Of a DNA stretch of 64,000 nt, positions 4,210-61,096 are shown piece after piece; position 1 is the stretch's first letter, and every line of letters begins with the position of its first letter. Under the pieces are notes generated by a model, which ran no database searches, was not told the origin of the DNA, and was given only the letters and a program-made list of their open reading frames with translations. Position numbers and translations under genes: made by a program. The stretch lies in contig JAUPSS010000006.1 in the NCBI GenBank assembly GCA_040285825.1, positions 248,001-312,000 on the forward strand, written 5' to 3'. The DNA comes from Eukaryota sp. TZLM1-RC (taxonomy: Eukaryota > Protista > Metamonada: BaSk clade).

Positions 4210-4739
4210 GTCGAAAAGGGGACAAAAACAGGCTTCAAACTAGTGATGGGAGTGGGTCTATGTTGTCTAAAGGTATGTGGAAAAGCTTGGTGGAATTATT
4301 AGTAGAAGAAGCAGGAAGAAGGTTGGAAGTATCATCAGGATGCAAAGGTACAATATAATTCTCGTAGAAAGGCTTGCTGTGGAGTTGCAATAGATTTTTA
4401 AATCGGTTAATAACAGCCAAAAATTGTCTCAGGTTGACTGTTATTGGTGAAAACCTTGGACCAATCTCTAAACAATGTAGCAACAAATCCATCCAGAAAG
4501 CAAAGTATCTTCTTGTTGAACAGCACAACAATGATTGATTTTAAACTTCAATTCATAATCAAATTAATGGCAAAAGAATACTTTAATATATTTTTCAATA
4601 TAAAAATATTTTTCATCGTAATTATCATCGTCACAAAGGGAGTTAAAAATGGTGATGAATACAGATTCGCCATTGCCACTAACTTTCATCAGCCACCAAT
4701 ATACCTCGCTTCTGTGGAGCTTCAGCTTAATGGTCTCAT

Positions 4740-5706: not shown

Positions 5707-6708
5707 TTATTTATTAAAAACAGAAATATTACCAGCAACTACTTCAGGATTGGTATCAGCAACCCAATACAGAATAGTTTTTTCATATTGGACGTAAAGT
5801 TCGTCATCAGCATTAATATCTTCCGCAGCAAAATAAGCAATCAAGGGATAAGTTACACCATCAAAAGATCGTTCCAAGTCGATGGCATAAACATTAATCT
5901 TTTCCTCGGATGAGGTGTTGACCATCCAGCCAGGACCATATTCCCAGAGTCGTGCCCTGGCATCAATGAAATAATGGTCGTTACAGATTGACCAGGAGAG
6001 AGAATATTGGTTGTCTGGGATTGACCTTTGGCGGAGCTGCATGGCCTTTTTGTCAACTGAGGATTCCTTGGGGTATACTTTGACCGTACACATCGGTAAG
6101 TAATACCCCTTGGAATTGTTATTGAGAGGAGGAGGAGACATAGGGGGATACACTCCTTTAAAGCTATGCGCATCATACAGTGATAGAGAACGAAGCTGAC
6201 TAGTGTCCCTGTACGGGAAGGCTGAAATTAAGGCAGTACGGCCAAGGTAATGGTTTACAAAGGCATCCTGCGAGAGCGTGGGTTCTTGGCAAATGTTGCC
6301 CACCACCCATCGACCATCTAGGAATTGAGCCATCACCGGTAATGAAGAGGTATAAACCAGCCAGACAGGATCGAGACCTTTGACATCACGCTTATGTGCA
6401 ATGACAATCGGTGCATCGCCATCTAGATGTTCTCGATGCCAATAATCAACATTACTGGCAAATGCCTTTACTTGTTGACACAGGTAAGAATTCCTGTAAG
6501 GCGGAATGAACAAGGGGGTGATCCGGGCTGGTTCATCTTGGACAGGCTCTAGTGGTGGCAAGCAGTCAGAATCGGAGCCACATTCTGCATCCCGTCTTGT
6601 TGCTTTGGTGGGTGGCTTTCTCTTCACGGAGCATCCATCTCTTCTGGCCTTGGATTGCCGTGTACTCACCCCCGATTTGCGCTTTCTACATCGTGTGGCA
6701 GGAGGCAT
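5707..6708 (-). CDS. SET-domain protein (divergent lysine methyltransferase), 333 aa, basic N-terminus
   Basis: YFIDAR..GPGWMVNTS..NV..YFAAEDINADDELYVQY matches SET C-terminal motifs (NHS-like and ELxxxY). Confidence 0.75.
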   Translation of the reverse strand: MPPATRCRKRKSGVSTRQSKARRDGCSVKRKPPTKATRRDAECGSDSDCLPPLEPVQDEPARITPLFIPPYRNSYLCQQVKAFASNVDYWHREHLDGDAPIVIAHKRDVKGLDPVWLVYTSSLPVMAQFLDGRWVVGNICQEPTLSQDAFVNHYLGRTALISAFPYRDTSQLRSLSLYDAHSFKGVYPPMSPPPLNNNSKGYYLPMCTVKVYPKESSVDKKAMQLRQRSIPDNQYSLSWSICNDHYFIDARARLWEYGPGWMVNTSSEEKINVYAIDLERSFDGVTYPLIAYFAAEDINADDELYVQYEKTILYWVADTNPEVVAGNISVFNK

Positions 6709-7007
6709 TGAGGTTGTGAGTAATATATAGGTTGAAATAAAAATTTCATTTACATGGAAGCTATATATTCCATTTCAGTTAAATGTATGGAAGCTATATA
6801 TTCCATATAACTACTCTCAAATTAAAACCTAAAACTTGCATCATTATAAACCCAAAACGTCATAAAAAGCATGGTAGTGTACATGTCTTGTTCAAACAAC
6901 TGAATAAAAATTATAAATTAAATTGAATTAAATATTGATTTAAAAATGCAAAACAAGCAGTAATTGAATAAAGACAAATACAAAACAAGGTGTATAATTC
7001 TAGTATC

Positions 7008-8217: not shown

Positions 8218-8835
8218 TTATTTTTATTCAACAACAAATATGAAATACACAATTAAAACTCCACATCCTCAAAACCTGCCTCCCCTACATCAAAACAATT
8301 AATCGCTAAAGATTCAGAAAATTTCCCAAAAGAAAATAGTGAATCAGAAATTAGTTTTACCATTCCCTTAAAAATAGAAAATACAATCCTGTTTTGCCAG
8401 TAAATACGATTGAAAATTCTTCCAGTTCTTTCCTTTACAACTACAACAAAATCCTCAAGGAAAGCCATAGCAGCCTTACCTAGAGATCCAAGCAAAGAAA
8501 AAACAAATGGACATAAATTATATTGGGCATGGGAATTTTCATTCACCGAGGAAATGGGTTTCGCATATTTAGCAATTTTATATTTTTCGCCTGCAAGAAG
8601 AGGATTATTTACATCCGAGTTAATGAGATGTTCGTTAGAGGAATTACAAGGGTCGATAGACATGGCGTCCAAAATAGTAAAACTACCATTTAAACCAGGA
8701 ACAACTAGATCACCTCTAGTCAGACCCATAGAAGCTCTGTTGTAACGCGTACTATCATTATTGGGATCATCAAGAATTAATTTTGATAACAGCGGTTCCA
8801 AAAAGGAATCTACTCTATATGATTTGCACATTACA
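8218..8835 (-). mobile_element. 5'-truncated non-LTR retrotransposon, restriction-like endonuclease (RLE) C-terminus with A-rich tail
   Basis: EPLL..RGDLVV..ILDA..EKYKIAKY..PFVFSLLGSLG pattern; the flank 8090-8217 continues without this element at 47112-47250. Confidence 0.7.
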
Positions 8836-9986
8836 TAAAAAATAAATTTTGAATTTTGAATTTTGAATTTTTTCAACCATGCTGCTATTTGCGTCTTGTT
8901 CTTAAAAATAGACAATAATGTTCTGACGTGGCACGTCAAGCCATTAACCCAGAATTGTTTACAGATGTCCTTAATAAGTAAGTTAAGTGAATGAGTGACG
9001 CAATGACTCGACAACACAATGTTATTATCCTGGAGAGTTTTGAAAAGACCAACAGCTGCTGCGTTGACCGTAGCTCCATCTAAGGTCAACCAAATGATCT
9101 TCTGAGCTTCTTCCACAATCTTTCTTCATTTCGTCAACCCCACTAGATTAGGATCAGAATGTATCTGTATCAATTTAGCCACTTCAGTAGCACCAAAGAC
9201 AATTATATCAGCTAGATGGTCTTGGTTCTGCTCTCGACAGTCCGCTGGTATACAACCGATGTAGAACGATCGTCCGTTCGAGGCAGCAATGATATTGTGA
9301 CGAGGTGTCATACCTGTAGAATAGCCATCAATAGAAAGTTCAAAGGAGTGTGAGATGAGTGAAGGAATAAAGCACTCGGCAATGAGAAGTTTAACTGTTT
9401 GATGGAGCTTTGGAAGAATTGAGTTGGACAGCTGCTGACGATTTGGACCCAGAAAATTAGGTTTAACTTGTTTAGAACGATGAATCTGAGCAAAGTAACG
9501 TAAGAAATCCTGAAAGGATTCCTTTTCAATAGTATTAAAAGATATCCCGGAAAGAGCAAAGGCGAGACATGCTTTCTTTCCTAAAGTTGCTTGAACGTCA
9601 TCTTCTACAAAAAAGTCATTAGTCTCCATTGGATCAGTTAGAGTAATTGCTTCACTAACAGAAGCTGACTCGATATAAGCCTTGTTGTTTTGTTCCTCAA
9701 TGGCTTTTTTTACCTTTTGTTCAGCTAGAAACATAGAAAGTTCTTTTGTATTTTCCCAACCAGAGCATGACGGGATATGGAGAGGTCCCCAGCGACAAGT
9801 GTTCTGCTTGGCGAAAACCTTACCACAGCCTCCACACCACACATCCATGTTGGTGGTGGTCTTCTTGTTGGCGATTTTCACCATTCGCCAGATCGTTTTA
9901 TTGCTATTGACGATATGGGTCTTAAAACCGGGAGGAGGTTCAAGTTTGAAAGACTCCCGGTAGCGGGGGGTGGAGGAAGATGTCAT
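8836..9986 (-). mobile_element. hAT-superfamily transposase, one in-frame TGA at 9126, 3'-truncated by the RLE element
   Basis: BED-like CxxC..H..C, ISFNTIE..F, PNRQQLS, first catalytic D in LSIDGYS, second D in LTLDGA, CxxH motif CVTHSLNL. Confidence 0.8.
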
Positions 9987-9994
9987 AATCAGAA

Positions 9995-10116
9995 TGCAAA
10001 AAAATACAAATCAAAAAATACAAAAAAATACAAATATATCGAAAAAAAATACAAATACAAATACAAAGAAAATACAGAATACAAATAAATACAGAAAATG
10101 GTATTTTGCAAGTATG
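9995..10116. repeat. Degenerate (AAATAC)n subterminal repeats and probable left end of the hAT element
   Basis: Repeated aaatac units ending in tgcaagtatg; absent from the homologous inverted copy at 26620. Confidence 0.55.
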
Positions 10117-13046: not shown

Positions 13047-15623
13047 CCACATCACAAACTTTTCATCAGAAAATGAAGTTTAAAATTGAATTCGTATTTT
13101 CAAATGAATAATTTTAAATGGTTTACATGCTGTATTGGAAGAAATTCTATTTCATTTGTCAACCCGATCGATCGGAATTTGCTGTTTGAAACAGAAAAAC
13201 TGTAAACATTACAGAAATCCTTTCAAGATATCCTCTGAAACCTTGCCAACCCAACTCTCCTCATTCTGGTTTAGTTCTTGCACTTTATCTGCTTTCCTTA
13301 CATCACTTTGTTCCTCTAACGGTGTCTGTCGTTCTACACCATCCTCCTATGTGAATGATGCTGTGAAAACTTCAGTCATTTCTCTTTTTCCTATTGAACT
13401 ACTGACATTACTCTAAGTCGTCTCATTTTTGTGATCTTATGAATTATTGTTTCTCTCACTCCACTAACTCCTCTCCGACTCCACATTCTTCACTTTCCTT
13501 CCTGTTAGTGTACATGGAATCTTTTATTTTGCATTCCCTAGCTGTTATTCTATTACATTTCATCAATCAATGTCAAAGGATTAACACGTGGAAGGTTGGG
13601 TAATTTTTTGGAAGTACAGGGGACTCGAACCCAGAACCTTGGTGTTAAGCAAATTGGTTGATTTTGCTTCAAGTTTTGAATTTTGAATTTGCTTCAGTGG
13701 TCTTGGTCAGCTGACCTTTTCTTCTTTTGCTGGTTTTTTCGTTGTTCAACTTTCAAATTTTTGTAATCTCAAACTATTGTTGCAAGGGATGTCAACATAA
13801 GAAAAACTTGTGTTTATGCTTCAACTAATCATTACTTTTCAACTAGTTCAATGTTGGGTACGACTGATATTGAATTTGAGAATGTTGAAAGTTTTTGATT
13901 TCAGGAGTGATATCCATGTCAAAACTCCAAATTATGACTAAATTATATCACCACTAATAATGATTTTTGTCACTATTTAGCTGATATAATTTGGAGTTAT
14001 CATCGACGTGTTGAGCCATCATGTTCATTTATTACTTCAGCAAAGTTAATCATTATTGAAACTGCTGCATTTAATTATCAATTTGTGTAAAAAAAATTGT
14101 CTTCATGTAGAAACTGTTGTTTGTTTCAACGAAGTTAATTCTAAACAATTAATTTTATGGACTCAATTTTACATTGCACATATTTTACTTGCAAAATATT
14201 TGTTTTGTTGTTGAAATTATAATCACAATGGTTCCATTTAATGTTATTTGGTTTTCAGGACCAATTCTCCGCACACTTGGTTATTTAAATACTGTTCTTG
14301 TTTGTGGTTCAACTACCACAGATGATTACCTTGAAGTAAACAAAACTACTTGATTTTTTTAAAATTTAGAGTCTCTACAAAATATTGAGAGTAATTCTCT
14401 TTATTTTGAATCTCTATTTATAAATACATAAGCGACTGAGTAATCATCAATCATTCAGTTTGTAATTGATTGAGGTTGATTACGGTCAAGAAAGATTTGA
14501 ATACGTGTGTCTGTATAGTCTACATGTTTTTGGATCTTTGTAGGTTTAATGCTTACAACAATTTTATTAATGAATTAATTTGAGGGTTTCTTTTTTTACC
14601 TCGACATGATTAATTCATTTTTTTCTTTATTTATTTTTATATTTAAGATAGGTTTAATTATGAGATGACTAAAGCAGCATCGATCTTTTGAATTTCTTCC
14701 TTTACTGTCATATTCTCTTTTCTAAAGATTATCAATTTTCTGAAAAAATATATTCCTCCATTTTATTTTCACAAAACTACAGCACTTCTAAACTTCTGCT
14801 TGTTCAGTAGCTGGAAAGTTTATTTGAGGGTTAAAACAATGTTTAACATAAGAAAAGATACTTTTTCAAGAAATTGTTGCTCACAGATGTATTTCGTACA
14901 TATCTTGCTCGTACATGCTGCTTGAATCGAAATCATTCTGATTGTCCTTCTTAATCAAAGTTTGGTTAAAAAGATACAATATTCAAGCCTGATTGAAAGT
15001 TTGTTGCCGCAGACTCAATCAAAGTTTGGTTATCTTCATTTTCCTCGGAACAACAGGCACATTAAACCTCAGTGACCTACAAGAAATCTTTGAAGGAGAT
15101 TCAAGATAAACTTACATGCATTTAATAAAAAGAATCTTTCTCTTGAATTATTCAGATTGAAATTGATGTAGTGTTCGAGAACAGAATCAGCAACTACTTC
15201 TTCGGGTTGGGCTAATGGTTCATCTGGCAAAAGAGAGAGAGGATAATTGGCACAGACATTCGTTTTATCTAGAGCTCTACAATGAGCACGAATAAAATTT
15301 TTTGTCCAGGATTGACAAATTTTAGGTAGACTTGTCTTCACGTTAGACGCTAATTGACGAGCCCGACAAGCAAGGTAAGGAGAAAGCCCTTTTCTATTGA
15401 TAAAATTACGTTTCTGAGACTGCAGCCAAGCATTGAGAAAAAGATTGAATGAATTTCTATAAGGCACTAAAGAATTTTTCCATGAAGAAACAAGAGACCT
15501 GTCTTGTTGATGCCGTAGGTTGGAAAAGTTTTTGAGATAAAGATGATTTATTTTTTTATTCATATTATAAAAGCCTAAGGGCACCAACACTGCTTCTCCC
15601 CTTTTTCAAAATCAATCGGCTTT
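13047..15623 (+). repeat. Second copy of the 1-2592 duplication
   Basis: Direct sequence match. Confidence 0.95.
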
Positions 15624-16283
15624 ATGAAATATTCCAGAGCTTGTTGATTAAAAGGAACAAACCCTGGAACTTTGGTGGCAATTGGGGATAAGGCATGTCT
15701 TCGAAATACATTTGGGCATGTACTTTCTAGACGATGTAAAATTGACAATCCCCAATGGCTTATCAACCAACAATTATAAACAGTGACATCCAATTCATCA
15801 CGCCTCAGGGCACGCGTATACAAATCATTAGATGTTACTGTTTGGTTCCAAATTTCGGAAATATGAAAATGATATTCATCATACCATTGTCTTAAATTTT
15901 CAGAAATTGTGGAACCGGAAACCACACAACTGGCATACTTTGATGGAGCAGGACACTCCATCTGCTTACCCATAGACCTGAAGAAATTCAGTTTTCAGGT
16001 CACAGGGCCATCGGTCAGCAGCTGTCTGTGAGCTGATTCGAGTTGAACAGCTCTATTGCTAAAAAGAGCAGCCTGACAAAAGGGTGGATGTTCTTGGCCC
16101 TCTACTAACGGAGGCCACGGCCAGGTAGCACTTGATGTCATATGCATAAAAGCCTCATAGACATCAGGGTTAGTGCTCTTGAAAGGCTCCCTAATTTTAG
16201 GTCGACTGTGGGTGACGCAGTCGAAGCACTGCGACCAGAATTGACGGTGAGCGAGCCAGCAGGACAGATGCGGATAGATGCTC
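15575..16283 (-). pseudogene. Unknown 'DGPVxWKxNFF / CPxPxKYA' family member; TGA at 15995, 5' end replaced by Ty3 sequence
   Basis: QFWSQCFD..WPWPP..LLTDGPVT*KLNFF..CPAPSKYA..QWY aligns by eye with the 33362 ORF. Confidence 0.75.
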
Positions 16284-18204
16284 CTTGCAGAAATCCGTGC
16301 AACAAGTTAAGAGTGTCCTTAATGAGTGATTTGGGAATCACTATCTTGTTGTCGAGAGTCATGTATAAATCAAGATGATTGTTATGAACACTGTTGTTGA
16401 AAGAGGGGTCTTTGGAAGCTTCGGCAAGCTTCTGTTCCGACCTAATCCTACAGAGCCATGGCTCGAAAATAGGGAGGTCGTTGAAACATCGTTCTTTGAT
16501 GACCATGATACGTTCGAAATTGTTTAAATCTTCTATGTAGTATCTTCCGTTTTCTGTTCTATCTATTTTATCGATATAAAATATTGGATGAAAATTTGGA
16601 GACATTTGATGGGACAAATGATTGATCTCTTGATGGTCTATAGGCGGAACTATTCGAGACAACATATCAGCCCAGAAGTTATCTTCCCCTTTGGTGTGTA
16701 CCAATTCAAAGCAGAATTTAGAGAAAATGGGTAACCATCAGGTTACAATTCTGTTCTTGTCTGGAGCTGTGAACATGTAGGTAAGGTTTTGATGGTCTGT
16801 GAATATGACCAGTTTCCTTCCTTTCAAGTAGTTTTCGAAACCACTTTGTGTCAACATCAGTAAGATGGCATAGAGTTCCTTTTGGTTTGTTGGCCAGTTC
16901 TTTTGCGAGTTGGTTAGCAACCTGCTGAAGAAACTGATGGGCCTACATTTCCTGTTGATCAGGGGAGTACCGGGGTCGTCGACTTGTTCGATTTGTTCCC
17001 ATATGACGCCGCCTACAGCAATGTCGGATGCGTCGCAACTTATTAAAATTTGATTTTCCAGTGGAGGTAAGTTGTACGGCATGTGCTGAGCTATCAGTTG
17101 TTTGATCTTTTGAAGGAGTCCGTCATGCATATCCATTGTAGGCGTTGCGCTCGGGGTTTGGGTTTAATGTTGGCGTTGTTCCCAACCTTCTTAGTCAATC
17201 TGATGATAGGAGCAATGAGCTCAGATACCTGAGGAAGCCATTCTCTAATGAAGTTGACTGATCCTACGAGGCTGCGGACGTCTTTGATTGTCTTTGGTCT
17301 AGGTAGATTCAACAAAGATTCAACACGAGTGGGATCGAAGGTCCGTTGTTTGTTTTGGAAAACACTGCCCAGTATCTTGATGGGGTGTCTGGAAGACACG
17401 AAATGGCACTTTGGAAGTCCCAATGAAACTCTTTTGCATCTAGTTTGATCGAGGACGCGTCGGAAACGCTCGATGAATTCGTCAAAGGTTGAACCTATGA
17501 TTATGATGTCATCTATATAGATGAATACACCGTCTCCAGAGAAGATGTCAGCCATGACGTTTTGGAAAACGGCTGGGACATTTTTGAGGCCAAACGCTGC
17601 ACGTTTGCACATGATGCTTTCACCAGGAATGCTCAGGGCTGTTTTGTGCCAGTCCTTTTCAGCAATCTTGAGTTGCCAAAAGGCTTGGGGGGGGGGGGTC
17701 GAGGGTGCCTATGTAGTTTGCTTGAGAGAGAAATACCAGCACATCGGAGATCCTTGGAAGGTTGGGCTCAACAGGAATGGTGTTGGCGTTGACTCCGTCC
17801 TTGCCACTATAATCACCAGTAAGGCGGGGCTTACAGTGATCTGGGTAGACCACTAGACAGACAGGGGAGCTGAACTCATGGTTCGATGGAACAGCAAATC
17901 CAGAGTCTACGAGTTCGTCGAAAATTTGGTTAGCGACCTCTAGCCTGGCTGGATTCAGGGTCCTGGGGGGTTTTCTAACTCTGACGTCTTCATTGTAGAA
18001 GTTGATTTCCATGGGATTGGTGGGCAGACCAATCTTTCGCCTACTAATACACAGGGAGAAGTCGGGAGCCATTGGTATCTCACATGCCATGTCCGGATTA
18101 CTCCAATACTTTGCAAAACCCACCAGGTTTCTGGTTAGTGCTTTCAATAGCCTATTGTAATGTAAACGGTATTGGTGGTCCATGAGAATGGGGATATACG
18201 TCAA
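16284..18204 (-). mobile_element. Ty3/gypsy LTR retrotransposon pol (RT, RNase H, start of integrase), frameshifted and truncated
   Basis: FSSPVCLV, FGLKNVPAVFQ, YIDDIII (RT); CDASDIAVG, FFSRLL, ELYAI, FTDHQNL (RNase H); GEDNFWADMLSR; RT-RH-INT order. Confidence 0.93.
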
Positions 18205-21200
18205 GATGCAATTTCACCTATATTACTCTAATGATCTTAATGCTTTTTCCATGTTAATCCTTCCTGACGTTCTCTTGCTGAACAATGTTAGTCTTTCATC
18301 CAGCAGCTGATCTACACCCATATTTCAAAAGAAGGAAATGAACCATTGTATTTGATTGTATGTTGTGTTGTACATGGATACATAAATCAGTATTGGTATT
18401 TATTTTTGTTTCAACATTTTGTCAACACTAGTCAACAATTGGCAATGTTCCAATTATCGGGGTTAATGCTCAGATTTAGCAAGACATTGTATTTGGATAT
18501 AATTGTATACTATGACATGACTACTGCAATTGTGTTTCTTGTATCTGAAGAACAAATGCAACATTTTATAGATTTACATGGTATTTATAGTTTTGTATAT
18601 TTGATAAATAAACAAGGTTGTAATAGTCTTTATTATTGAAGAGTATTAGAAAACTAAGTATTAGCCTAGAAATAGGCTATTCGTATCCTTACAGGTGATA
18701 GGCCCATATAAATAGGCCCAGATAGATGTTTGTTTAATAAAATTTTAAAGTTTTACACCTCAAATATATTTCCAAGAAATTGCTCTCGAAAAAATGGAAA
18801 TTCAATTTGCTTGTATTTTGTTGTACAATAAAACAAAACTTAGTTAATTTATTTTTTACGTAATAAATGTTTGACACTTTTAGAGATTTTATGACAATTT
18901 ATGGGGAGGTTAATGATAATGAATTATCTTTAAAGAAAACCATTATTATTACATAATATATTGGTGAATCTATTATGATATTAAAACGATATTCTCCACG
19001 TTCATATCTTTCATAACGAAAATACCAAACTTCGATAGGATAGGATCGATAGGATTGACACATGAAATTAAATTTCTTCCAATAAAGCATGTAAACAATT
19101 TAAAATTATTCATTTGAAAAGGTGAATTCAATTTTAAACTTCATTTTCTGATGAAAAGTTTGTGATGTGTTGAACGCAAATTCATTGTCCTTCATGGATT
19201 CATTGACCATAATGCTATTTGTCAGTGATCAGTGGACCAATGACAATTAGAATTTATTCAATTCCAATCTTCGCCCACAAAAACATAGACGAGATTTACT
19301 AAAAAAAATTTTTGAAAAAAAAATTGTTGTTGAAAAATTCTATTTTTGAATTTCTCGATCGTTTCCCTGAAGACATTCATTTGCTGCTGAATCCATCATC
19401 TACGCATTATTTGTATGACCTTGATATTGCTATTAATAAAATTACACCAGAAATTGGGTTGTTCTTGCAATGAATATAATATATCAAATGATAAATTATG
19501 TTTGAATTGTGTAATCATGTTGAAAATATTCAAATAAATATTAATTCATCGACAAACAGATTGAATTTGTAGACAAGTGTTTGAATTGTGTTGACAGAAA
19601 AAGTATATATTAATAGGGAATTGAAAACAACTAACTCTGAACTTATGACAGGAGCTTTATTTTGTAAAAAATTGGCCAATACACAGTGAATCAGCTGATG
19701 TTAGTTTGTCAATGATCCATACCAATCTCAGTTTGTGTCAGAAAAAATGTTAAAACAGAGACCAGAATCAATTTATTTATATCGGAAATCTCCTTTTAAA
19801 TGGTAATCACCAATCAGAAATAATAAAACAAGAATATAGGCAACTCACTAGTGAGCTGACTCGTGGGTACTGTCAGGAGACATGTAAGATACTGTAAATG
19901 AATAAATGAATTACTCAATTACATACATTCCTTAAATGTCATAAAACTACTCCTCTAGTGACATCACTTCTCAACACATACTTGTCAAAAGATGTATAAA
20001 AACCAACCAAGAACAGCATGAGCTCATTTTTCAGTGGCTTTGTTTTAGTATTTGTAACTATCAATATTTGTTGTACCTTGAAAATAAACTCTTGGTGTTG
20101 CCTTATGTTTAAATGAGTTAGGAAAATTGGATTTATTTTCTATTTCAAAGTAATTTTTTATTTTACCACATTATATAAGAATTAAGGCTCCACCACAGCT
20201 TCTTCCTTTTTTCAGAAATCAATCATCTTATACGAATATGAAACCAAAATATAAACAAATAAATAAATAACTATCAATACTGAGAACTAGCTATGGTTCC
20301 TAATTCTATCACTACGTCTAAGAAGTTTAGTGGACGTAGCGTAGGACACTACCTATGGTCGAAATTTTCGATCTTTTTTTGGTCAAACATTTTTACAAAC
20401 ACGGTACTTTATTCTACTACCCAATAATTAATACCCAAACATATAATTAATTCCATCAAGGTCTTTAGGTACCCATTCAATGGTTCACTGTTAAAGAAAA
20501 GAGGTATGTAAAAGGACGTAGCACACAATGTGATCCTGTTGAAAGTTAAAAGACGATGAAACAACCTTGACAGCGACCATTTTTTTACGAGCGTTTGGGT
20601 GTCTAGTTCATTCGGAACGACCTTTTCATATAAGCAGCAGAGCAGTGAGATTAGTAAAACCAGGTGATACATCCAAAAGAACTGCACAGGGGAGCATTTG
20701 TAGCAAAGCAGCTTTTGCCGTTTGATGCAAAGTTTTTTTTATCACTGATTTTGGACCGACGATGTTCATAAGAGATGTCTAGGTGTATATCAACCATAAA
20801 AATTGTAGATAAGATAAATAAAAGGGACTAAAGGTCATCCGCAGAAGCGTGTGGTACTTTTTAACGTATTATATCGTTCAAAGAACGAAGTAAAAGGTCA
20901 GCTTGTGTATTTAGTCCGGACGACGGAATAGATGATAATCGTCTTCCAGAAAATGACACTACTGAAGGAGAAACTAAGGAGAAACTAAGTATAGATATTA
21001 ATAGATACTCCCCTGTAATTAGAAAATTAGTTTATAGATATGTACAAGTCTAAAAAGCTGAAAATTGAAAAGAAAAATGAAACAATGAATAAATACCGTA
21101 TAAATAAATACTTTACTACTGACTAACAATAAATTTACATATGATAAATAGAATAATAATAATAATAATTTTTTATTTGTTAAAATATGGTTAATTTAGA

Positions 21201-34294: not shown

Positions 34295-34746
34295 TTCAAA
34301 GTAAAGTTAGTTACAAGTGTTTATTAATGATACATATCCTTTAAGATTACTTTCTGAATATTTTCCTTTCTTCAGACAAGAACTACATGTTACAAAAGTT
34401 GGTGAGTGGAGTTTGGTTGGGTTGTCATCATTCCCCAGATTCATAATTGAATTTCATTTCATCACTTACAACATTTCATCACTTACTCTACTACGAACCT
34501 TCTCCCTACAAATAACACTATGGTCACGCCTTCTGACACCACAAATCTAAGATTATGTCGGCCGTTGGGTCGGAGATTTTCAAACACAAGTACTTATAGA
34601 TGGGGTCAACCGAGTGGACCCTATATATATATATTAAGAACCTTCTCTATCCTATCTTAACATTGCATAACTTTCATCACTTTGTATTTCAACTTCATTA
34701 TGCCTTCTGTACTCTCATTAATCATTCTCTAGTCATTCCATAAACT

Positions 34747-35394
34747 TTGCTATTGTGTCTCGTGTTTCTCAATACAACACCTTACTTAGTTCCTTCCTTC
34801 GACTCTATGACTTCACTTAAGCCAATACATCTTGCCTCCACCAACGATGACAGCAGTGACGATGACAGCAGTGACGATATGGTACTCAGACGTAGCCCCT
34901 TACCTAGGGCCTACCCCTCTGATTCCAACACATTGAATGCAGTACTTACACAATCACAACTTACTCCCGGTGAATTAGCCCTTCAACAGGAACGTAACAA
35001 ACTTTCCCTAACAAGAGGTTCTTATCAGCTACGCCCTCTTCGTCGACGTGCTGCTAACCGTGATCAAATAACTCTTCCATCTTGGATTAACAATAAGCCG
35101 TATACCACACAGATTGCACTCTTTTGCAAGCGATCTTTGTCTAATTTTAAGATATATTTTGCTCGCTCTCTCTATCTGCAACATCACAAATGTTTAGGGT
35201 TGGGCCTCTATGCTGGTGAGAACATTCCTCGTCATGATTTTATTTGTCCACACAAAGGTGAAACCCATTATTTCTCATCCGTTGCTGAAGCTGATCAGTA
35301 TTGCGATTTAGTTGATTCATCATATTGCTTTGTATTCCCTTCCACCATTAAAAAAGGTCATTATCTTGTAGTTGATATGGGGTCGACCCTTTGA
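34747..35394 (+). pseudogene. SET-domain N-terminal half, truncated
   Basis: GLGLYAGENIPRHDFICPHKGE..YCF..VVD. Confidence 0.7.
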
Positions 35395-48240: not shown

Positions 48241-48549
48241 GTTAATATATATACCAAGTCAATGGATTGAAATTGTTGTAAACAACACTCAGAATTTCTT
48301 CACAGAACATATAAATGATTTATGAAAGAGTTGTATGACTTTTGGAAAAATGTGTTTTTAATCAACTTTATTTCAAAAAATTAACTACTGCTTACGCTTT
48401 TTAATTTTGGTTCGTTGAACAACAGGAGGTGGACGATTTCCTGGAATAATCTTCTGCTGAGGTTTCTTCATTTCTTTTTTCTACCAAACTGTGTTGATGT
48501 GAAACAGAACTGTTACTATTAAAATCATTATTTATTACAAACAATAAAA

Positions 48550-50960: not shown

Positions 50961-53900
50961 GAGTTATGGTCAAAAGATTAGCGAATGCAAGATATGGAAA
51001 AATTTAAAAGAATTTATGCTCAAAACAAAGTAGAACGTGTTTGGGCTTATGTAGAAAATGTAATTAATTTAAATTGGATTATATAAACAAAAAAAATGAA
51101 TTTTATATTGATAAATGATTATCCCTAGCGCATACTTTGATTATTTCTTGACTCAAGATCCATCCAATTTTGACTTGTCAATTTTTGAATTGAAATTAGC
51201 AGTTATTTGTTAGTGACATGAGAGAATTATTAGAACAAAAAAGTTTAGAGAAATTTAACTCAAAATATTTTTTTTCCAAATCATTCCAATCAGGAATTTC
51301 AGGTTTTACATCCTCAACAACCTCTTCTTTTGATTCATCACCCAAGAAAAGAACACCACCACCACCATCATTATCAGATTCCTCTTTCGGTTTTTTTTCT
51401 CTTCATCAAGTTTTTCTAGACTATTACCACCAGATTTTTTTGTTGAGGTTTTGGCTTTTGGTCAAAATTTTGTCAGGATTATTCATTAATGAATTTGATT
51501 TGAAAATTGAATTATGATTCATGAAATTCTCAACAATTGGTTCGTATAAAAGCTCTCCATCACCAAATTCAAATTGTACAACTTTGTTTTCATTATTTCC
51601 TTCCAGGAAACGTTCATATTGTTTGACAATTTTTCTGGTTTGTAAATTTTTCTACCACCAGTGATGAAATCAATTCCCTCATCATTGTGACGATGTTGTA
51701 CTAATTTTCTCAATTCAATAGCATTTTGTTTTAAAACATCACTACCATCAAATCTATAATGTTGACAACCACCAGGCAGTGAATTTCACCTCTGAATTCT
51801 CAGCTCACCAACTTTCAATCTTTAGACACCGATTGCGCACAATCTATAGCACTTAAAGGTCAAGTTTGATTTAACAAAATGTTGTACATGAGGGGACAAC
51901 TATTTGACGGACTCATTAATAAACGGTTTAGTTTTGCTCTATTTCACTGTCTACCGCTGTCTATAACAAAAACCAACAGTCAATAAACCACAAATGTAAC
52001 AATGTCTCAATTATTGAATAAATCTACATGTCTCGTATGTTAATAAGGATTTAAATCACAATAGTGAAATTCATTATTCCGGCTGATATTATGCAAAGTG
52101 GAGATGATGTGCCTTCTGGTTATCATCGACGTCCCGAACTGGAATCCATTGAACCCATTAGACCACCCATTAGACCAGTTTGGGATCAACCAGTAGACCA
52201 ACAGCAAACTCTGAAGTTGATGTAATTTAAAAAGAAGCAATAGCTGAAAATGGCATTGGATGCTATTCAAATGCCTTATGGATGCTTTACCTATATAAAG
52301 GTGTATCTGTAAGTACTAACTTCTTTTTTGCCTACAACAAAGACACCGCTCGGAATTGGGGATGGAACCATCATAGCAAATTAAGTACATGCGATTTAAT
52401 TGATCGACCACAACCTGTTTAAGTATTTGGTTCTGAAATGCTTAGAAGTTTTTAAACAACTTTGACTTTGTAATGATTTTCATTCTCCATCCCAATACTC
52501 TTTCTTTTTCACTCCATACGAAAGTTTGTAGTTTTGAGGACACTTCCCCCTTCCCGTCGTCCACTCTTAACGCTCGACGCTAACGGTCCATGACATCGGT
52601 ATTTTCTTTGCATCAGCCATAATGATTGTCTCCTTTCTGTTGCATAACCTCCGATGATACATCTCCCCTCTCAAATCTCTTCCCTTAAACTTAAGACCAT
52701 CGTCTTTCTTTTGCGATACATTACCCACATAGACTCTCTCAAACTCTTTTCTGCTATTTCTGGTTCACCATTTCCGTTGTTCATCTTCCTTGAAAAATCC
52801 TTAACGAAATTTGAACTCACACAGTTGGAGTCGAACCCAGACGGATGTGTCGGCCGACCTATCCATTGTTTACATACTTTATTGATTTGATTAAATGTTT
52901 TGTGTCAATCCGATCGATTGGAAGATTGAAACAGAAAAACTGTAAACATTACAGAAATCCTTTCAAGATATCCTCTGAAACCTTGCCAACCCAATTCTTT
53001 TCATTCTTGGTTTAGTTCTTAAATTTTATCTGCTTTACTTTTACTGAAACTTTCTGCTGCTGATGAACACTGATGAATGACCTCTTGCTCTGCCCAAACT
53101 TTCTACTCCCAGTCATGAAACATTCTTGTCTACCCTTCACCACCAACTCCTCTTTGCTGGCTTGTACATCTTGCTTCGTTTATCTTCTATGACTCATTTG
53201 GAATTAATCAATTAATTTTTTGATCTTGGTGGGATTTGAACCCAAGAACATGGTGCTGTTATCAGTCTCAACCTTTGTTCTTCCCAATATCAACACTTTA
53301 TGTCCAGTTGAATCTGATGGTAAAGTTATTGATGGATGTGCTATTGATGAACCTCTTATTTCCCTTGTCAAATTTGATATTGTTTTTGATGATGCAGTTG
53401 TTAATATCTATTGTTGCTAGTGATTCCACTTTTGATTCTAAAACATTTTTTATTCATGATTTGGCTGCTGTTGATGCTGTTGATAATGACTATGAATTGA
53501 CTAACATGTATTAAAGTATGAATAATTCCAACTTCGTCTTATTTATGATTTTTTGTCCAAAAAATGACTAGTGACATATTATTTTTATTATTTCATCTTA
53601 TTTCTATTCATATTTATTTTTTTCAACTCAGTAAGGTGTTTGAACTAGTTTTACATTTTCTTCAAATTAATATAATTTTGAGTTAAATCTTTATTTAGAT
53701 AATATTTTTGAATTTCGCAGAGTCTCTACCAAATATTGAGAGTAATTCTCTTTATTTTGAGTCTCTACTAATAAATACATAAACGACTGAGTAATCATCA
53801 ATCATTTAGTTTTTAACTGTTTGAGGTTGATTACGGTCAAGAAAGATCTGATTACGTGTGTCTGTATAGTCTACATGTTTTTGGATCTTTGTAGGTTTAA

Positions 53901-55412
53901 TACTTACAACAATTATATTTATGAATTAATTTGAGGGTTTCTTTTTTTACCTCAACAAAATTAATTCATTTTATTTTCTTTTTGTACTACAACAATTTAA
54001 ATTGATTTTTTTTGAAAGATAGAATGAGGATAGAATTGTCCTCTCCGCTAGAGCTGGAGGAAGACTGAGCGTTAGCGGAAGGAGGATATCTTGTCATGCC
54101 AGTCATGACATGATTTGACATACGAGACGCGTAAATCTTAAGAGCCTCAACTCAGCGGGAGATGGATTCTCGACCGGTATGTTCTAAATACAGGGCAACT
54201 GGGAAGGAGAACGTATCCTTCTTGAAGATTCTGGAGTGATCCTTTCATCGACGAGATATGGACCAATTCTGGGAGAGATCCATAATCCTAAGTCGTTCTC
54301 GACTTTAGGACCGTAGAAAGGAGGACGTTTGTTGCTCATCTCCGTGGGAGGGATGGCTTCTGGGTCCTCCGGAAGGACCTGTGGATCCCTATAACGTGCA
54401 TAAGGATTGTGCTGACGGGAAGCACCGTGATGATGAATACTAGAGCTAGCGTGGTAGCTTGTTTGGGTGGGAGTGAATTGAGCAGGTGTAGAGGATGTTC
54501 CTCTTCTAGCTTGAATCATCCACCGGTGGTGTATTGAGAGCAGACTGAACACTGTTATTGGTCTGAACCACAGACTCTCTGAAAATTTTCCTCCTGACGG
54601 GAACTCTGCGCACTATCTGCAGTGGAGTTTTAGTACAACTATTAAAACTATCAATTAATTAAAACGAACTTTTTTTAATGGAGGAGGAAGGGTGTTTTTC
54701 GGTAACTTTGGAAGTTTCAACTTTGGTGGGCTCTGCAACTTTTGGGTGGTTATCAGAATTGTACTGACACCAAATGCAGTCTGGGTCAGACTCAGTAGGA
54801 GGATTTGGATCATTCAAATCCAAGTAATCATCGTCTTTGTGATTTAAAAGGTGATGGGTTCTGTCTCTATTGTTTTTACACGTTTGACAACGATGTCTGT
54901 TGTGAGTAGAACAAACAGTAGCACCTCCATATGTCTCGCCTACAGATTGAGATGAGGATAGTTCTGAGAAAGAGCGTTCTGCATCAGACCAGTCTTCTAC
55001 CTTTGCAAGACCGGGACGAGGAGGCGAGGGAGGGCAAACAGGGTTCTAATGTTAATAAAGCGATGGTCACATACATCAGCAAGCTGAGTAGCATCTTGGA
55101 TATGCTGATCCTGGGTGGATGTGCATCCATGGGTTCATCATTTGTGCTGATAACAGCAACAACACCAGGTACGGCAACAGCAGATGTGACACAGTCAAGT
55201 AGCTCTTGGAGAGTGTACTTGCCAGTTAAAAAGACTTCGCGGGATAAGTACTGTGATTAGTGAATGTGTCGGAACCCGACATACTTGGTTAATCATAACG
55301 AGAATTATGGGATATGAAAATTCGAAATTTCATTCATGCTATTTAAATATTTAGACAGTATAATGGTGTGGAAAAATTTTAAATTTATTTTTATACGTGT
55401 GATGACGTGTCA

Positions 55413-56330
55413 CTATTTAGATCTATTAATATAAAGGATACGAGTACCTCCTACTGCTTCAATAACTGAATCTGATGTGATTTTACCTGGGTCTGTCATA
55501 ATCATCATAAGTAACCGGTTGCGTTTAGCAACATATGGGTTTCCTCCTTCAGAACAAGACTTGGAGTAATCTACCCATAAATTAAGTGCTGAGGCAACAT
55601 TGAATTCTGCAATATGATTAGTTCCTGTGTGATCTGTTGGTTTAAATTCGACTAATCTATCTTGAAGTACTTGGAAACGTTTGAGCATGAATGCATGACT
55701 GAAAACATCAACCATTGGTTGCTTTGGGTCATAATTAAAATTACGATAAGCAGCATCGTGGTGATTGGAATCATATGATGCAAACATACATGGAAGTATG
55801 TCATGTGCGAAGGAAGTTGGTGCTTCTGGAAAACCATCAGCTTGAAATGTTTGATTACCTGGTTCAAGTTCCTGGAATTTAGCATATCTTGGCATGTAAC
55901 TTGGGTTGTTAGGTTCCTTATATATAAAAAGGATAACACGTGCACGTGGATGAGAACATTTAGTTGCTTTAAGAGCAACGCGTGATTCAATACCTTTGAT
56001 AACAATTGCCTTATCTAATGTGTTTGTAGATTGAGAATTAGCTTGAATTTGTGTTAAATCTTGAATAGTCAACCATTTACCATCTTTAGAATAATAAGGT
56101 GCAGATTGTGCAAGAAGATTCTTAACTGCCTGTTTTGAAGAATCAATTGTTGGATTTAATGGAAAAATTGCATGTTCCAATGGAGTACTTTTACGAGGAG
56201 CATAAGTGCGAGAAGGAGGAGGTTTGTAAAGAGATCGTAAAGATCTGCGACCATATGCACCATAACCAGCATTACGTGCCCTACGATTAGGAAAACGTCT
56301 TCTGCGACGAAATCTACGACGAGGATACAT
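55413..56330 (-). CDS. cap: CRESS virus capsid protein (Arg-rich arm, jelly-roll), virion sense
   Basis: MYPRRRFRRRRR N-terminus; RVILFIYK, RFQVLQD and C-terminal RILY resemble gemini/genomo/STNV-type capsid strands. Confidence 0.85.
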   Translation of the reverse strand: MYPRRRFRRRRRFPNRRARNAGYGAYGRRSLRSLYKPPPSRTYAPRKSTPLEHAIFPLNPTIDSSKQAVKNLLAQSAPYYSKDGKWLTIQDLTQIQANSQSTNTLDKAIVIKGIESRVALKATKCSHPRARVILFIYKEPNNPSYMPRYAKFQELEPGNQTFQADGFPEAPTSFAHDILPCMFASYDSNHHDAAYRNFNYDPKQPMVDVFSHAFMLKRFQVLQDRLVEFKPTDHTGTNHIAEFNVASALNLWVDYSKSCSEGGNPYVAKRNRLLMMIMTDPGKITSDSVIEAVGGTRILYINRSK

Positions 56331-56368
56331 GTTGTGAAAAAAATAATGTTATTTTTCTGATTTCTCTT

Positions 56369-57403
56369 ATGACACACGAACTTGCTTACTCAAAAACTCA
56401 AACTGATGCTGGTAATCTCTGGAACCTTGGTTTAACCAAATATAATGGTGGAAAAAATGACGTGATAAGAACAAAAAGATGGAACCATACCGGTACCATC
56501 GGAACAACTGACTTTATGTGGGTCATGTACAACACTCACACGAATGCTTTGAATGAATATGTATGGCCATGCACACATGTTCTAGATAATGATAAGGCCA
56601 AAAACGGAATTTTCAATCGAACATATTTAAAGTGGAATGAGGATTCAGAAGATGATGAAGAAATAACTAATGATGCAACCAGAAGAACAGTTGCACCAGC
56701 TAACAGACCAATGGTTGTAAGTAACAACAATGGTTTTGACTTTGGAGAAGGAACTGATTTTTCAAGAACAAGATTGTACTTCCGGATGACGTTAGATACT
56801 ATTTCATATAGACATGGATATGGAATAGGAAATGGTGCCGATCAATTAATAGAAAGACGGCATTTTGTCAAAACTGAAGAACATTATGATTGTGACTACA
56901 TGGGCAGGTTGATTATTTGGATAGACAACACAATGGAAGGAGAATGCGCTCTGATAAATAATGAACAATGGTGTGAAGATATTCAAAGAAGTCCAGAAAG
57001 GGAAGATTTAGTTGCTAATGACTTTGAATATAATTGGTCTAAATATTGGACCAATGCAACAACTGGTATGTTGCGTTATAGAGGTAAAAACACTACTGAA
57101 ATACTGAGTGCAAAGTGTAAAGGTAAAGTTCTTCATGATGAAATCTTTGATATTAAATACAAAGAAATGAATGTTGTTGAAGGTGTTGTAGAAGGAATTG
57201 CTGATAGGAGTGAAGGACCAAACTTAACTGATGAAGGTCCTTTAAAGTATACACTTATAGTTGGAGGTATGAGAGGAGGTGTTGAAACGAATTCAGCTTA
57301 CTTTGAAGGAAATTGGGGTACGTATGACCCTGAACCTTTTGCTATAATGGGTAATGTGCTGAATTATAGTATGGTGTTTGATTTTAGATTTAGTTCAAAA
57401 TAA
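56369..57403 (+). CDS. Viral 344-aa protein, putative second jelly-roll/minor capsid
   Basis: Intact ORF; GRLIIWID, KVLHDEIFDI and terminal VFDFRF parallel the capsid strands; no basic arm. Confidence 0.55.
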   Translation: MTHELAYSKTQTDAGNLWNLGLTKYNGGKNDVIRTKRWNHTGTIGTTDFMWVMYNTHTNALNEYVWPCTHVLDNDKAKNGIFNRTYLKWNEDSEDDEEITNDATRRTVAPANRPMVVSNNNGFDFGEGTDFSRTRLYFRMTLDTISYRHGYGIGNGADQLIERRHFVKTEEHYDCDYMGRLIIWIDNTMEGECALINNEQWCEDIQRSPEREDLVANDFEYNWSKYWTNATTGMLRYRGKNTTEILSAKCKGKVLHDEIFDIKYKEMNVVEGVVEGIADRSEGPNLTDEGPLKYTLIVGGMRGGVETNSAYFEGNWGTYDPEPFAIMGNVLNYSMVFDFRFSSK

Positions 57404-57408
57404 ATGAT

Positions 57409-57822
57409 TTATGGTAAACCCATATATGGGCGGCGTCTACGAGCTGCTATAAATTTCTTTCTTCTAGTTACAAAGTTAATAAAATCTTTGTTCTTAAAGT
57501 TTTTCTTCCAATCATCTGTAAATTTTTCTCGTCTGTTGACTCTATCATTTACACGTTTTTTGTGAAAAAGAGAAGATGGATCTTTAGGTTTATGAAGTCT
57601 GGACCATTCATAATATAAACCTTGTTTGTATTCACGACCGAAAGATGGAAGATGTTGATTGGGGTCAGGATCAGGAATATATGAATATTCCACTTGGGGA
57701 TATTTGGGTGTATGAAGTGCTCCTGCACTGTCTCTTTCCTTGTAAACGTCTGTATGAGGTTTTTTAGGTGGATGATAACCTTCCCATTGGGGAACAAATG
57801 TACCTATTCTTCTTTTACCCAT
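57409..57822 (-). CDS. Viral basic protein, 137 aa, in frame with the upstream ORF
   Basis: Intact, K/R-rich; its stop is 5 nt from the convergent ORF's stop. Confidence 0.65.
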   Translation of the reverse strand: MGKRRIGTFVPQWEGYHPPKKPHTDVYKERDSAGALHTPKYPQVEYSYIPDPDPNQHLPSFGREYKQGLYYEWSRLHKPKDPSSLFHKKRVNDRVNRREKFTDDWKKNFKNKDFINFVTRRKKFIAARRRRPYMGLP

Positions 57823-57909
57823 ATAAGCCTTTTGATATGTAGGATCAGTTTGTGCCTTTTCGGCATCAAAATCAGCATCGAAATATCTATTATGATGATA
57901 ACCAACTAG

Positions 57910-58710
57910 TTAGTTCTTAAGATGAGGGTGTTGAATGTCGTCCCACTTGACTTCGCCTGGAGCATGGCGAGTGTTGATACCTGGATCTCTTTTAAACTGT
58001 TTTTCTGTAGCGTGTTCAGTAGCATGTGTTGATGTAGATACAAGAGATATCTTACCATCTTTACCTTTAGATATATACTGTGGCTCAGTAAATTGATGAA
58101 CCATATGGTCTCTTCTACGTTGATTAAGTTCTGCACGACTTCGCATATAATTGCGATGTCTACGATAAGATCTATAAATAGACATTGGAAGATTAAGGGC
58201 CGTGTAAGGCATATTCCTTCTTCTATAATAAAATTTGGGTCTATAAGATCTTTGTTGATAAGGAAAACTACGGAAACTATAATTGTTTCCAAGAGGTTGA
58301 TGAAGAGATGATATATGTAAAGGCATATGATTATTTCTGGAAGGTATAGCCCATTGGGGTCTATTTTTCTCCCAATAATGATTTGTGATTCTATCACCAA
58401 TAGCACCAATAACTTTTTGGTGCGTAAAAGGATGTGATAATGTAGAATAAAGGACTTGACCATAAGGAGATTGGGTTGTAGACATCCATTTATATGATTT
58501 GGATGCTAAACCATAACCTTCAGGAGCTAGGGAACCTAGAGCTGCCATTCCTGCACTCTTTGGATAATCGCGCCAATTATGGTTTGATTTTCCAAAAGTA
58601 TTTTTGAAAAATTGATAACCAGTGCCGATAACTGCACCAGTTAAAGCCCTGGTGAAGGGATTTGCAACAACGGGATAAAGTGTGTTAGGTTGTAATTGGG
58701 GTATGTTCAT
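57910..58710 (-). CDS. Viral 266-aa protein, Gly/Ala-rich N-half and Arg/Tyr-rich C-half
   Basis: Intact ORF starting 56 nt from the origin stem on the virion strand. Confidence 0.7.
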   Translation of the reverse strand: MNIPQLQPNTLYPVVANPFTRALTGAVIGTGYQFFKNTFGKSNHNWRDYPKSAGMAALGSLAPEGYGLASKSYKWMSTTQSPYGQVLYSTLSHPFTHQKVIGAIGDRITNHYWEKNRPQWAIPSRNNHMPLHISSLHQPLGNNYSFRSFPYQQRSYRPKFYYRRRNMPYTALNLPMSIYRSYRRHRNYMRSRAELNQRRRDHMVHQFTEPQYISKGKDGKISLVSTSTHATEHATEKQFKRDPGINTRHAPGEVKWDDIQHPHLKN

Positions 58711-58765
58711 GAAGGGAAATAAAATGAAATTAAAAATTGCATTTGGTGATGACGTGGCAACACTT

Positions 58766-58798
58766 GAAAAGCGTGGGTAATACTAATTCACGCTTTTC
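58766..58798 (-). promoter_or_regulatory. Rolling-circle origin: perfect 10-bp stem with TAGTATTAC nonanucleotide (58777-58785, minus strand)
   Basis: gaaaagcgtg-ggtaatactaatt-cacgcttttc. Confidence 0.95.
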
Positions 58799-58843: not shown

Positions 58844-59185
58844 ATGGTAAACCGAAACCCTGTCAAGAGCTGGTTCTTCACTTTGAACAATCCAAGCGAA
58901 GAGGAAACGAATGCTTTGGTCGATGACTTGAAAGGATTGGCAAGATGCGCAACTGTTGGAAAGGAAGTAGGAGAATCCGGAACACCTCATCTACAAGGAT
59001 GCTTTGTGCTGAGAGATGCCATGAAACTAAAAGATTTGAAGAACAAGCTTAATGAAAGAGCCCATTGGGAACCTATGAAGAACGTAAAGAAAAGCCGTGA
59101 ATATTGTAAAAAGGAAGGTAATGTAATCTTAGACTTTGGATATCCTGAAGCTAATATTGACATCAATAAATTAAAACTGTTGTAA
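58844..59185 (+). pseudogene. rep: CRESS Rep, HUH endonuclease domain only (helicase lost)
   Basis: Motif I FTLNN, motif II PHLQG, motif III YCKK; the last ~11 codons derive from the flanking repeat. Confidence 0.93.
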
Positions 59186-61096
59186 GCAAAACATAGAATT
59201 TGTTTGTAGAAATTAACAAAGATTTATGAAAGAGTTGTATGACTTTTTGAAAAATGTGAGATTTTAAAATAAAATTTCAAATTCTCTATCAAATATTACA
59301 AACTCTTATATACCATTTCATACTTGCAAAAGCTTATACAATACACACATAATTAAAAGGTTTTACAGTTCCATAGTTTATTTTGAAGTTATGCAAAATG
59401 ATATTCTTCCATAAATACCCAGTAAAATTCTTACCACTTGAACGACATAAATTATTATAACAAATCTGAACAAAGTTTTGTTCAGAGTAGTTTCACTAAC
59501 ACAAATGGTGCGAGGCAGTACATTCAAACAAACGATGTGAGACGTTAGTGTGGATGAATGAAAAGTTAGTCTTCAGTGGGATCAGCCGACCTAAATCTGA
59601 CTCACGTTGACCATTGAAATGTTATTGGACCATTTATTGCACTAATTGTGTACATTCTAAGTTTGGTAGTACATGAAATCTTAAATATTCCTTAATCCAT
59701 CTCTAACTGATCGGCATTGAATCTTCCTCATGTCTCATCACCCCGTTTAAAAACTTATTGACAAGGTGACTTCTGATCCAAACACGAAACATGTTAAGTC
59801 GTTATTCACAAGTTGACTTGGCTTGATATGATTTGACTTGAGTCATTAGATAATGTTAGTTGAAAGTTCCATTTATTGAAATGAAAAACACACTATTTCC
59901 ATCTCCAATCCCTTTTGTTTTATTGTACCGAGCCCCCTGGAGTCGGGCATGCTTAGGCCTTCCCCTTTTATTCCGAGAATGCATGACGCTTTCTTCTTCC
60001 GGCGTCAGCACCTCATATATGCTCATCGTTCTTGCTTTTGATGTCTGTCACACCCTTGATGTTGTTGTTCTTGCTTACGATCGTTTATTTCTTAGTTCTT
60101 TCTTTAGTTTTTCTTGTTCTCAATTGTTGTTTAGAGCAGTCCTCACCAAGCCACACACTCAGTATCTCAGTAGATCGACGTCATTTGTCATTCTCAACTC
60201 CATCATCTTTTCGTTCAATCTTTAGCAACATTTGTGCTTTATCATTTCCTGAGTTTTTTCCTTCATTGGGACTCGAACTCGTGACTCTTTTGATTTTTTT
60301 TGGAGTTGGTGAGATTCGAACCCAGGACCTCAGTCTTGTCCAATTTTGATGAACCTGGAATTTGACCAATGTCCAATGTCTAAACTTTAGGTCCAGTTGA
60401 TTTTAATAGTAATGTTATTGATGGATGCTATTTACCTCTTATTACCCTTGTTAAATCCATTGTTGAGTTTGATCATTTAGTTGTTGTTGGTTGTTCAACT
60501 TAATCTTTTGCTACTGATTAATCCATTGAATTAAACTATGTGGGTTTGCTACTCATGACCATTTTACATTAATCAAAATTAATTGGATTATGATTAATGA
60601 TGTGTTTCTGAATCTTGTTATGGTTTATTTATCAATGTAGATGACTCAATTGTGGATTTCACCAATATTAAAACTTTAGGTCTAGTTGATGCTGAAGGTA
60701 AAGTTATTAGTGGATGCACTAATAATTTTCCTCTCATTACCCTTGTTAAATCTAATGTTGATCCTGTACTTGTTGTTTGTTGTTTGTTGTCAATCTCAAT
60801 CTATTGATGCTACTTATTCTACTACTGATTTCGAAACTGTTGTTGTTGGTGGTTCAACTTGGATGATTACCTTGAATTAACCAAAACTACTTTGAATTTT
60901 TTAAATTTAGAGTCTCTATCAAACATTGAGAGTAATTCTCTTTGTTCAGAATCTCTAATAATAAATACATAAACGACTGATTAATCATCAATGATTCAGT
61001 TTTTAACTGTTTGAAGTTGATAACGGTCAAGAAAGATCTGATTACGTGTGTCTGTATAGTCTACATGTTTTTGGATTTTTGTAGGTTTAATACTTA

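Follow-up and report, generated by a model that had tools for sequence, protein, structure and literature searches.

Two genes that stand head to head in the window analysed here, a 64-kb stretch of AT-rich, repeat-laden eukaryotic DNA, raise the question of whether one single-stranded DNA virus encoded two capsid-like proteins. The first-pass annotation had taken ORF305 for a capsid protein and ORF344 for a duplicated or captured jelly-roll employed as a minor capsid protein or spike. That both genes are real, open and divergently transcribed was borne out: their starts lie 38 nt apart, and the 344-codon open frame is beyond chance, the longest frame in 2000 shuffles having 190 codons. Their assignment to one ssDNA virus stood in so far as they belong to a CRESS-virus element with a Rep gene and an origin, but this is not a free genome. 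It is an element of approx. 4.5 kb placed between host repeats on a 1,524,069-bp eukaryotic contig, from which both proteins are recorded. From left to right, the locus comprises a host repeat, ORF-X (−), ORF305 (−), ORF344 (+), ORF433 (−), the origin stem-loop, Rep (+) and a second host repeat (Table 1).

Table 1. Features of the viral element and its borders (positions in the window unless given as residues).
Feature	Position	Strand	Remarks
Host repeat, left of the element	53705..54517	.	copies within the window; contigs of runs X1 and X2
ORF-X, in pieces across frames	54658..55329	-	open stretches of 90, 128 and 52 codons, each in another frame
CACGTCA motif upstream of ORF-X	55403..55409	-	putative promoter element
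ORF305, predicted gemini/STNV-type single jelly-roll capsid protein with Arg-rich arm	55413..56330	-	nonamer strand
ORF344, intact acidic armless orphan	56369..57403	+	Rep strand; head to head with ORF305
ORF344 candidate strands	residues: D ~132-150, E 178-189, F 250-263, H ~322-329, I 331-343		
CACGTCA motif ~130 nt upstream of the ORF305 start	56458..56464	-	inside the ORF344 coding sequence
ORF433	57409..58710	-	266 + 166 codons of one frame, interrupted by one stop codon (57910-57912)
CACGTCA motif upstream of ORF433	58750..58756	-	
Rolling-circle origin stem-loop	58766..58798	-	TAGTATTAC at 58777-58785
Rep, HUH endonuclease domain only	58844..59160	+	PF02407, E 1.4e-15; motifs FTLNN, PHLQG, YCKK
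Host repeat, right of the element	59152..59500	.	repeat copy; X2 contig; right junction ~59152-59163

The left junction of the element falls between about 54520 and 54650, and many variant X1 and X2 contigs reach 54510-54517 with loose ends there. On the right side, an X2 contig matching from 59152 onward carries unlike sequence before that point, and a self-comparison of the window revealed 81% identity between 59163-59258 and 48259-48354. A target-site duplication was not found, the two edges of the element having only AT-rich 9-mers in common. In a Pfam scan of 15 ORFs of the window, four gave matches, including a reverse transcriptase (PF00078, E 4.6e-10), an RNase H (PF17917, E 7.6e-22) and, weakly, SET and DUF659. 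The window contains a decayed LTR-retrotransposon pol with RT and RNase H (16141-18213, −), a DUF659-like transposon remnant (8256-10010, −) and a SET-like ORF (5710-6774, −) with a possible second copy (34744-35391, +). A repeat of approx. 280 bp (53705-53982), possibly an LTR, occurs in at least seven copies of 86-94% identity, one located 0.7 kb left of the viral element and further ones at 1325, 14357, 30963, 37915, 44124 and 60898.

With a truncated Rep and two disrupted genes, the element is likely an integrated, decaying CRESS virus fossil in a eukaryote chromosome. Host sequence on both sides and decay of the viral genes, as in endogenous viral elements, were both found. In the simplest reading, one circular genome would have broken within Rep on integration and two genes would later have been lost to mutation. 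Such breakage, with loss of the helicase half, is very probable. The stretch retained between the host repeats, about 4.5 kb without this half, exceeds the mark of approx. 3.5 kb of multi-capsid CRESS genomes, and we infer a circular parent genome of at least 4.5 kb, or about 5 kb given a Rep of usual length. All five genes of the element display a positive G-skew (+0.13 to +0.26) as compared to −0.07 and −0.09 in the outer flanks; the host piece 54000-54650 is positive as well. In run X1, which may be the source sample, seven short contigs are identical to parts of the element. One of them, 151 nt in length, covers 56297-56447 and thus has the start codons of ORF305 and ORF344 on one contig. 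Three sequencing runs from a single study are listed, and none of the contigs compared covers 56448-57403; at a depth of 2-3 this absence proves nothing. Likewise, no joint closing the element into a circle was present among these contigs, whose depth cannot show absence. A different 151-nt X1 contig is about 80% alike (29 differences) to 54872-55021 within ORF-X, hinting from its sequence at a second, diverged virus copy in the X1 sample.

The three Rep motifs align with those of seven CRESS Reps, and identity to the fetched CRESS Reps ranges from 36 to 50%. Rep ends directly after the endonuclease domain, with host repeat DNA from 59152-59163, and no Walker A or helicase motif was detected near the element. 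We also considered that Rep may natively lack a helicase, and rejected this because host repeat DNA begins right past the endonuclease domain. In a quick tree built from 60 endonuclease domains, the best of the 113 fetched, and computed without family references, Rep fell into no supported set. Because none of the fetched Reps comes closer than 50% identity and the tree leaves Rep unplaced, the virus appears to be new within a known kind. The nonamer TAGTATTAC of the origin has its sole exact copy in the 64-kb window here, and the stem-loop (−10.2 kcal/mol, z −5.6) was matched by 0 of 200 shuffles.

As a rule, the strand carrying the nonamer is the virion strand. Accordingly, ORF305, ORF433 and ORF-X are virion-sense genes, and Rep and ORF344 are complementary-sense genes. 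ORF-X is likely a viral gene; its 128-aa piece had no Pfam match. ORF433, whose end lies 5 nt from that of ORF344, gave no significant Pfam or PHROG match, and no related locus was found for its 266-aa part. The C-terminal part of ORF433 is basic (35 R+K in 166 aa), and an Arg-rich stretch is present in the middle of the protein. Each of the three genes on the nonamer strand is preceded by the motif CACGTCA, which is absent upstream of ORF344. Three of the nine copies in the window fall within the element as compared to 0.45 expected (Poisson P 0.011), and at two sites, upstream of ORF305 and ORF-X, the motif is followed by a TTTTTCCAC..CATTATA stretch. Judged from this distribution, CACGTCA may be a viral late-promoter element. 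A scan for sigma-70 promoters remained at chance level (16 found, 16.9 expected).

The capsid assignment of ORF305 held up well, and the protein is supported as the predicted major capsid protein of the virus. An HMM of 58 capsid sequences built without ORF305 recognized it with an E value of 1.8e-8 (0/1000 shuffles), and comparison with Cressdnaviricota capsid clusters yielded an Atlas feature score of 0.97 and a TM score of 0.56 over residues 39-303. The narrow capsid profile barely detected it, 7 of 1000 shuffles being as good. For these profiles, we collected CRESS genomes through their origin and Rep patterns and used 120 of the 197 capsid homologues; the proteins of the window were left out. 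ORF305 is distant from gemini/STNV-like capsids, with 10-25% identity in a capsid alignment and a long E-F insertion. It has no Pfam match of its own, and direct searches returned no homologue; one of them counted two matching stretches without returning a locus. The crucivirus-type S-domain was found in neither protein: PF00729 matched neither ORF305 nor ORF344, and the scores with an HMM of five S-domain-type ORFs were reached by 166/1000 and 225/1000 shuffles, respectively.

The description of ORF344 as acidic and devoid of an Arg-rich arm proved correct. Its first 45 residues contain 6 R+K as compared to 16 in ORF305, and its pI is 5.0 as compared to 10.0. Without a basic arm and with this pI, ORF344 would not condense DNA as ORF305 would. 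The two proteins share 13% identity in another capsid alignment. ORF344 is an orphan: it found none but itself among 5.8 billion clusters (1744 candidates), nothing in 1.84 billion representatives, and no homologue in viral contigs, metagenome contigs, phage records, PDB sequences, Pfam or PHROGs. Nor did it match an enzyme family, so that the proposed capsid relationship was not overturned from this side.

The annotation had based this relationship on three pairs of motifs. All six motifs are present and in order, at residues 131, 219 and 297 of ORF305 and 179, 252 and 337 of ORF344, but the likeness is within chance: chained, the three ORF305 motifs scored 34 in ORF344, which was reached by 84 of 300 shuffles. 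In the form quoted, two of the pairs have negative scores, and the first pair has to be shifted by one residue. Pairwise alignment of the two proteins in four settings gave z values of 0.5-1.1, and BLASTP an E value of 1.7. Standard profile methods were negative as well. The capsid HMM that finds ORF305 assigned −1.4 bits to ORF344 (390/1000 shuffles as good), pairwise hhalign returned a probability of 0.2-0.3%, and none of 15 cluster HMMs from the fetched CRESS genomes detected the protein (best 74/1000). With the broad profile, ORF344 reached z 0.1-0.9 for the block chain and −0.7 to 0.9 for the glocal score. In MAFFT placement, 62 of 120 shuffles scored as well as ORF344 and all 16 held-out CRESS capsid-like ORFs scored higher. 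The Atlas language-model search assigned no capsid cluster to ORF344 (best 0.77 as compared to 0.97 for ORF305). These negative tests do not refute a jelly-roll, because capsid-like ORFs held out from other CRESS groups frequently fail them as well.

Positive signals came from custom tests of strand content and order. The narrow profile gave z 3.0-4.0 for the eight-block chain on ORF344 (0-3/200 shuffles), a result that none of 67 partly redundant decoys surpassed, and z 2.0-2.9 for the glocal score. A chain of the four strands D, E, F and I, which were picked after seeing the alignment, was matched by 2/1000 shuffles; corrected over 70 strand choices, this becomes 73/1000, and 8 of 50 decoys reached it. 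The chain of all eight strands was reached by 45/1000 shuffles. The independent best matches of six of the eight capsid strand blocks lie in the proper order in ORF344 (64-75/3000 shuffles; 1/50 phage decoys), and 5-6 of 3000 shuffles remained when strand I was additionally required to lie at the C-terminus. ORF305 itself scores 6 in this test, the same as ORF344, and depending on the setting 11-13 of the 16 held-out CRESS capsid-like ORFs fall below ORF344. These positive tests are custom, few among more than ten and dependent on the profile, and hence are to be read as hints; the support from the strand-order tests is borderline (p about 0.02-0.07).

Structure prediction left the matter in a similar state. 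From the single sequence, AlphaFold failed on ORF344 (pLDDT 28). On a 76-row capsid alignment, run without a negative control, it produced a partial jelly-roll with a mean pLDDT of 54.6 and a pTM of 0.51, in which four candidate strands (D, E, F, I) had block pLDDT values of 71-86 and strand H was absent. This threaded jelly-roll is circular because the capsid alignment imposes the fold. Both of its capsid matches remained below the bar of 8 set by VIA, from which the Z scores derive: Z 7.0 for the maize streak virus capsid (rmsd 5.4, 163 aligned; Foldseek E 0.046) and Z 6.9 for the STNV capsid (rmsd 4.0, 152 aligned; Foldseek E 0.062). Foldseek against PDB gave no match under E 0.001 for the threaded model. 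In BFVD, 16 entries matched at E ≤0.001, of which the four with a name are coat or capsid proteins. The claim that ORF344 is a second jelly-roll is thus neither proven nor overturned: the standard tests are negative, the strand order is borderline and the model is driven by its alignment. Overall, we find a jelly-roll fold of ORF344 slightly favored.

How these observations are best combined is finely balanced. We give an even chance to a gene-rich CRESS virus, now integrated, in which ORF305 was the major capsid protein and ORF344, a diverged capsid-derived jelly-roll, served as a minor, outward-facing virion protein. A capsid gene would have been duplicated or captured, and its product would have lost the basic DNA-binding arm and gained an N-terminal extension of about 80 residues and long D-E and E-F loops, so that a small number of ORF344 copies might be placed in or on a shell consisting mostly of ORF305. 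If ORF344 has this fold, the extra N-terminal residues and long loops of the model would suit an outer minor protein, and a genome above 3.5 kb points to a changed virion architecture according to the sections of PMC7000223 drawn on here. Given the fold, a virion role has slightly better than even odds; fold and virion role taken together are doubtful. Counted against such a role are the location of ORF344 on the Rep strand and the lack of the CACGTCA motif that precedes each of the three genes on the capsid strand. The same two features, together with the missing basic arm, the pI of 5.0 and the low identity to ORF305, would fit a capsid-derived but non-structural protein acting early in trafficking or host interaction, by analogy to 30K movement proteins or geminivirus BR1. 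Precedent exists in the 30K proteins (PMC10306228, in the part considered) and in PF00844, which joins coat protein and BR1, and the evidence for the fold is the same as for a virion protein. The fold is unproven, however, cell-to-cell movement would be useless in a single-celled host and the genome size argues for altered virions, which makes the non-structural role unlikely though hardly far-fetched. The virion role is slightly favored over it. A more specific version of the virion role, clearly unlikely in its entirety, would have ORF344 as the armless acidic jelly-roll spike or vertex protein of a two-protein, microvirus-like shell in an unsampled five-gene CRESS lineage, with a paralogue beyond sequence detection and the integrated copy as host link.

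ORF344 might also be an accessory viral protein unrelated to capsids, its capsid-like motifs being ordinary amphipathic strands matched by chance. This is a serious contender, if somewhat short of an even chance: every standard sequence, profile and language-model test was negative, the original motif pairs are within chance and the positive results stem from a few profile-dependent custom tests among many. Yet the strand order is stable across three settings and finishes at the C-terminus, as it does in the capsid family, and the majority of the held-out capsid-like ORFs fall below ORF344, several of them failing other tests too. Since such ORFs score below ORF344 or fail, the tests evidently miss true capsids of other families. 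It is very improbable that the two genes stem from separate molecules brought together by integration or misassembly, or that the element is co-assembled free virus DNA. No contig bridges either host junction at the depth of 2-3, but an identical X1 contig spans both start codons, upstream motifs are shared, strand skew is uniform and the motif of ORF305 lies inside ORF344. Moreover, the disrupted genes and the truncation of Rep by a host repeat are consistent with an old insertion.

One capsid gene per CRESS virus, as the first-pass annotation assumed, holds as a rule and has published exceptions. In the sections of Tisza et al. 2020 (PMC7000223) used here, three STNV-like capsid genes are reported for one CRESS genome (ctdh33) and two each for ctba10, ctcc19, ctbj26, ctcd34 and ctbd1037; five of these six genomes measure 3.5-6.2 kb, and the finding is called the first in ssDNA viruses. 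On the strength of these sections, the two-capsid layout itself is not new, and our literature search for other multi-capsid CRESS viruses returned this as the sole relevant report. The present element resembles those genomes in its CRESS Rep, a size within the 3.5-6.2-kb range and an STNV/gemini-type capsid gene next to a candidate second one. It differs in that HHpred identified the ctdh33 paralogues at 97-99%, with 28-30% similarity among them, whereas ORF344 is below detection. In contrast to unclassified gemini/STNV-like relatives with PF00844/PF03898-type capsids (e.g. L058, L021), which have 2-2.7-kb genomes and one capsid gene, the element is gene-rich, although its ORF305 has a similar Arg-rich arm and aligns across the core. 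Larger genomes with CRESS-like Reps were also encountered. A 7.4-kb IMG/VR contig (L126:1-7416), a gene-rich CRESS-like genome, encodes a CRESS Rep together with an S-domain capsid ORF (PF00729, E 7.9e-11) and no fewer than six other ORFs, four of which were scanned without a Pfam match. A 6.2-kb contig (L102:1434-6070) carries Rep, an S-domain capsid (PF00729, E 1.3e-12) and, adjoining the latter, a 382-aa ORF whose N-terminus is basic and which gave no Pfam match. A 19.6-kb GenBank virus (L065, OP947160.1) is annotated with two replication-associated proteins (3773-4369 and 14523-15416), a sulfhydryl oxidase and a methyltransferase, and its Rep is 36% identical to that of the window.

A jelly-roll gene put to another use has precedents. 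The part of PMC10306228 consulted derives 30K movement proteins from jelly-roll capsids via duplication or capture, and the Pfam description of PF00844 unites coat protein and BR1, the geminivirus nuclear export factor, in one family; a coat-protein origin of the nuclear shuttle protein is not stated in the corresponding part of PMC7156597. Like these, ORF344 would be a second jelly-roll gene with new terminal regions beside the capsid gene of an ssDNA virus. However, 30K proteins and BR1 belong to plant viruses, and ORF344 has no sequence match to these families. Microviruses possess two jelly-roll proteins in an ssDNA virus, the major capsid protein F and the spike G, the second without a DNA-binding arm. 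They are bacteriophages, though, and ORF344 has no PHROG match. Should ORF344 be a jelly-roll, the orphan genes of large CRESS genomes may in many cases be unrecognized capsid paralogues. This would be relevant to how CRESS viruses fit in more DNA than is usual for a T=1 shell.

Beyond the two-capsid layout, interest remains in the armless acidic orphan on the Rep strand, with its fold and role, and in the possible link of a gene-rich CRESS virus to a host. As in the endogenous cressdnaviruses of Blastocystis and Histomonas (Kinsella et al. 2022, PMC9615429, in the portion drawn on), CRESS sequence resides in a eukaryotic assembly and offers a usable link to a host. Of the 38 Blastocystis elements listed there, 37 are Rep-like and one is Cap-like, whereas the present element has retained five genes together with the origin in their order. 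The multi-capsid genomes of Tisza et al. 2020 are described as free circles from mixed animal-associated samples; a near-whole copy integrated in a chromosome-size contig would, in contrast, tie a gene-rich CRESS lineage to its host.
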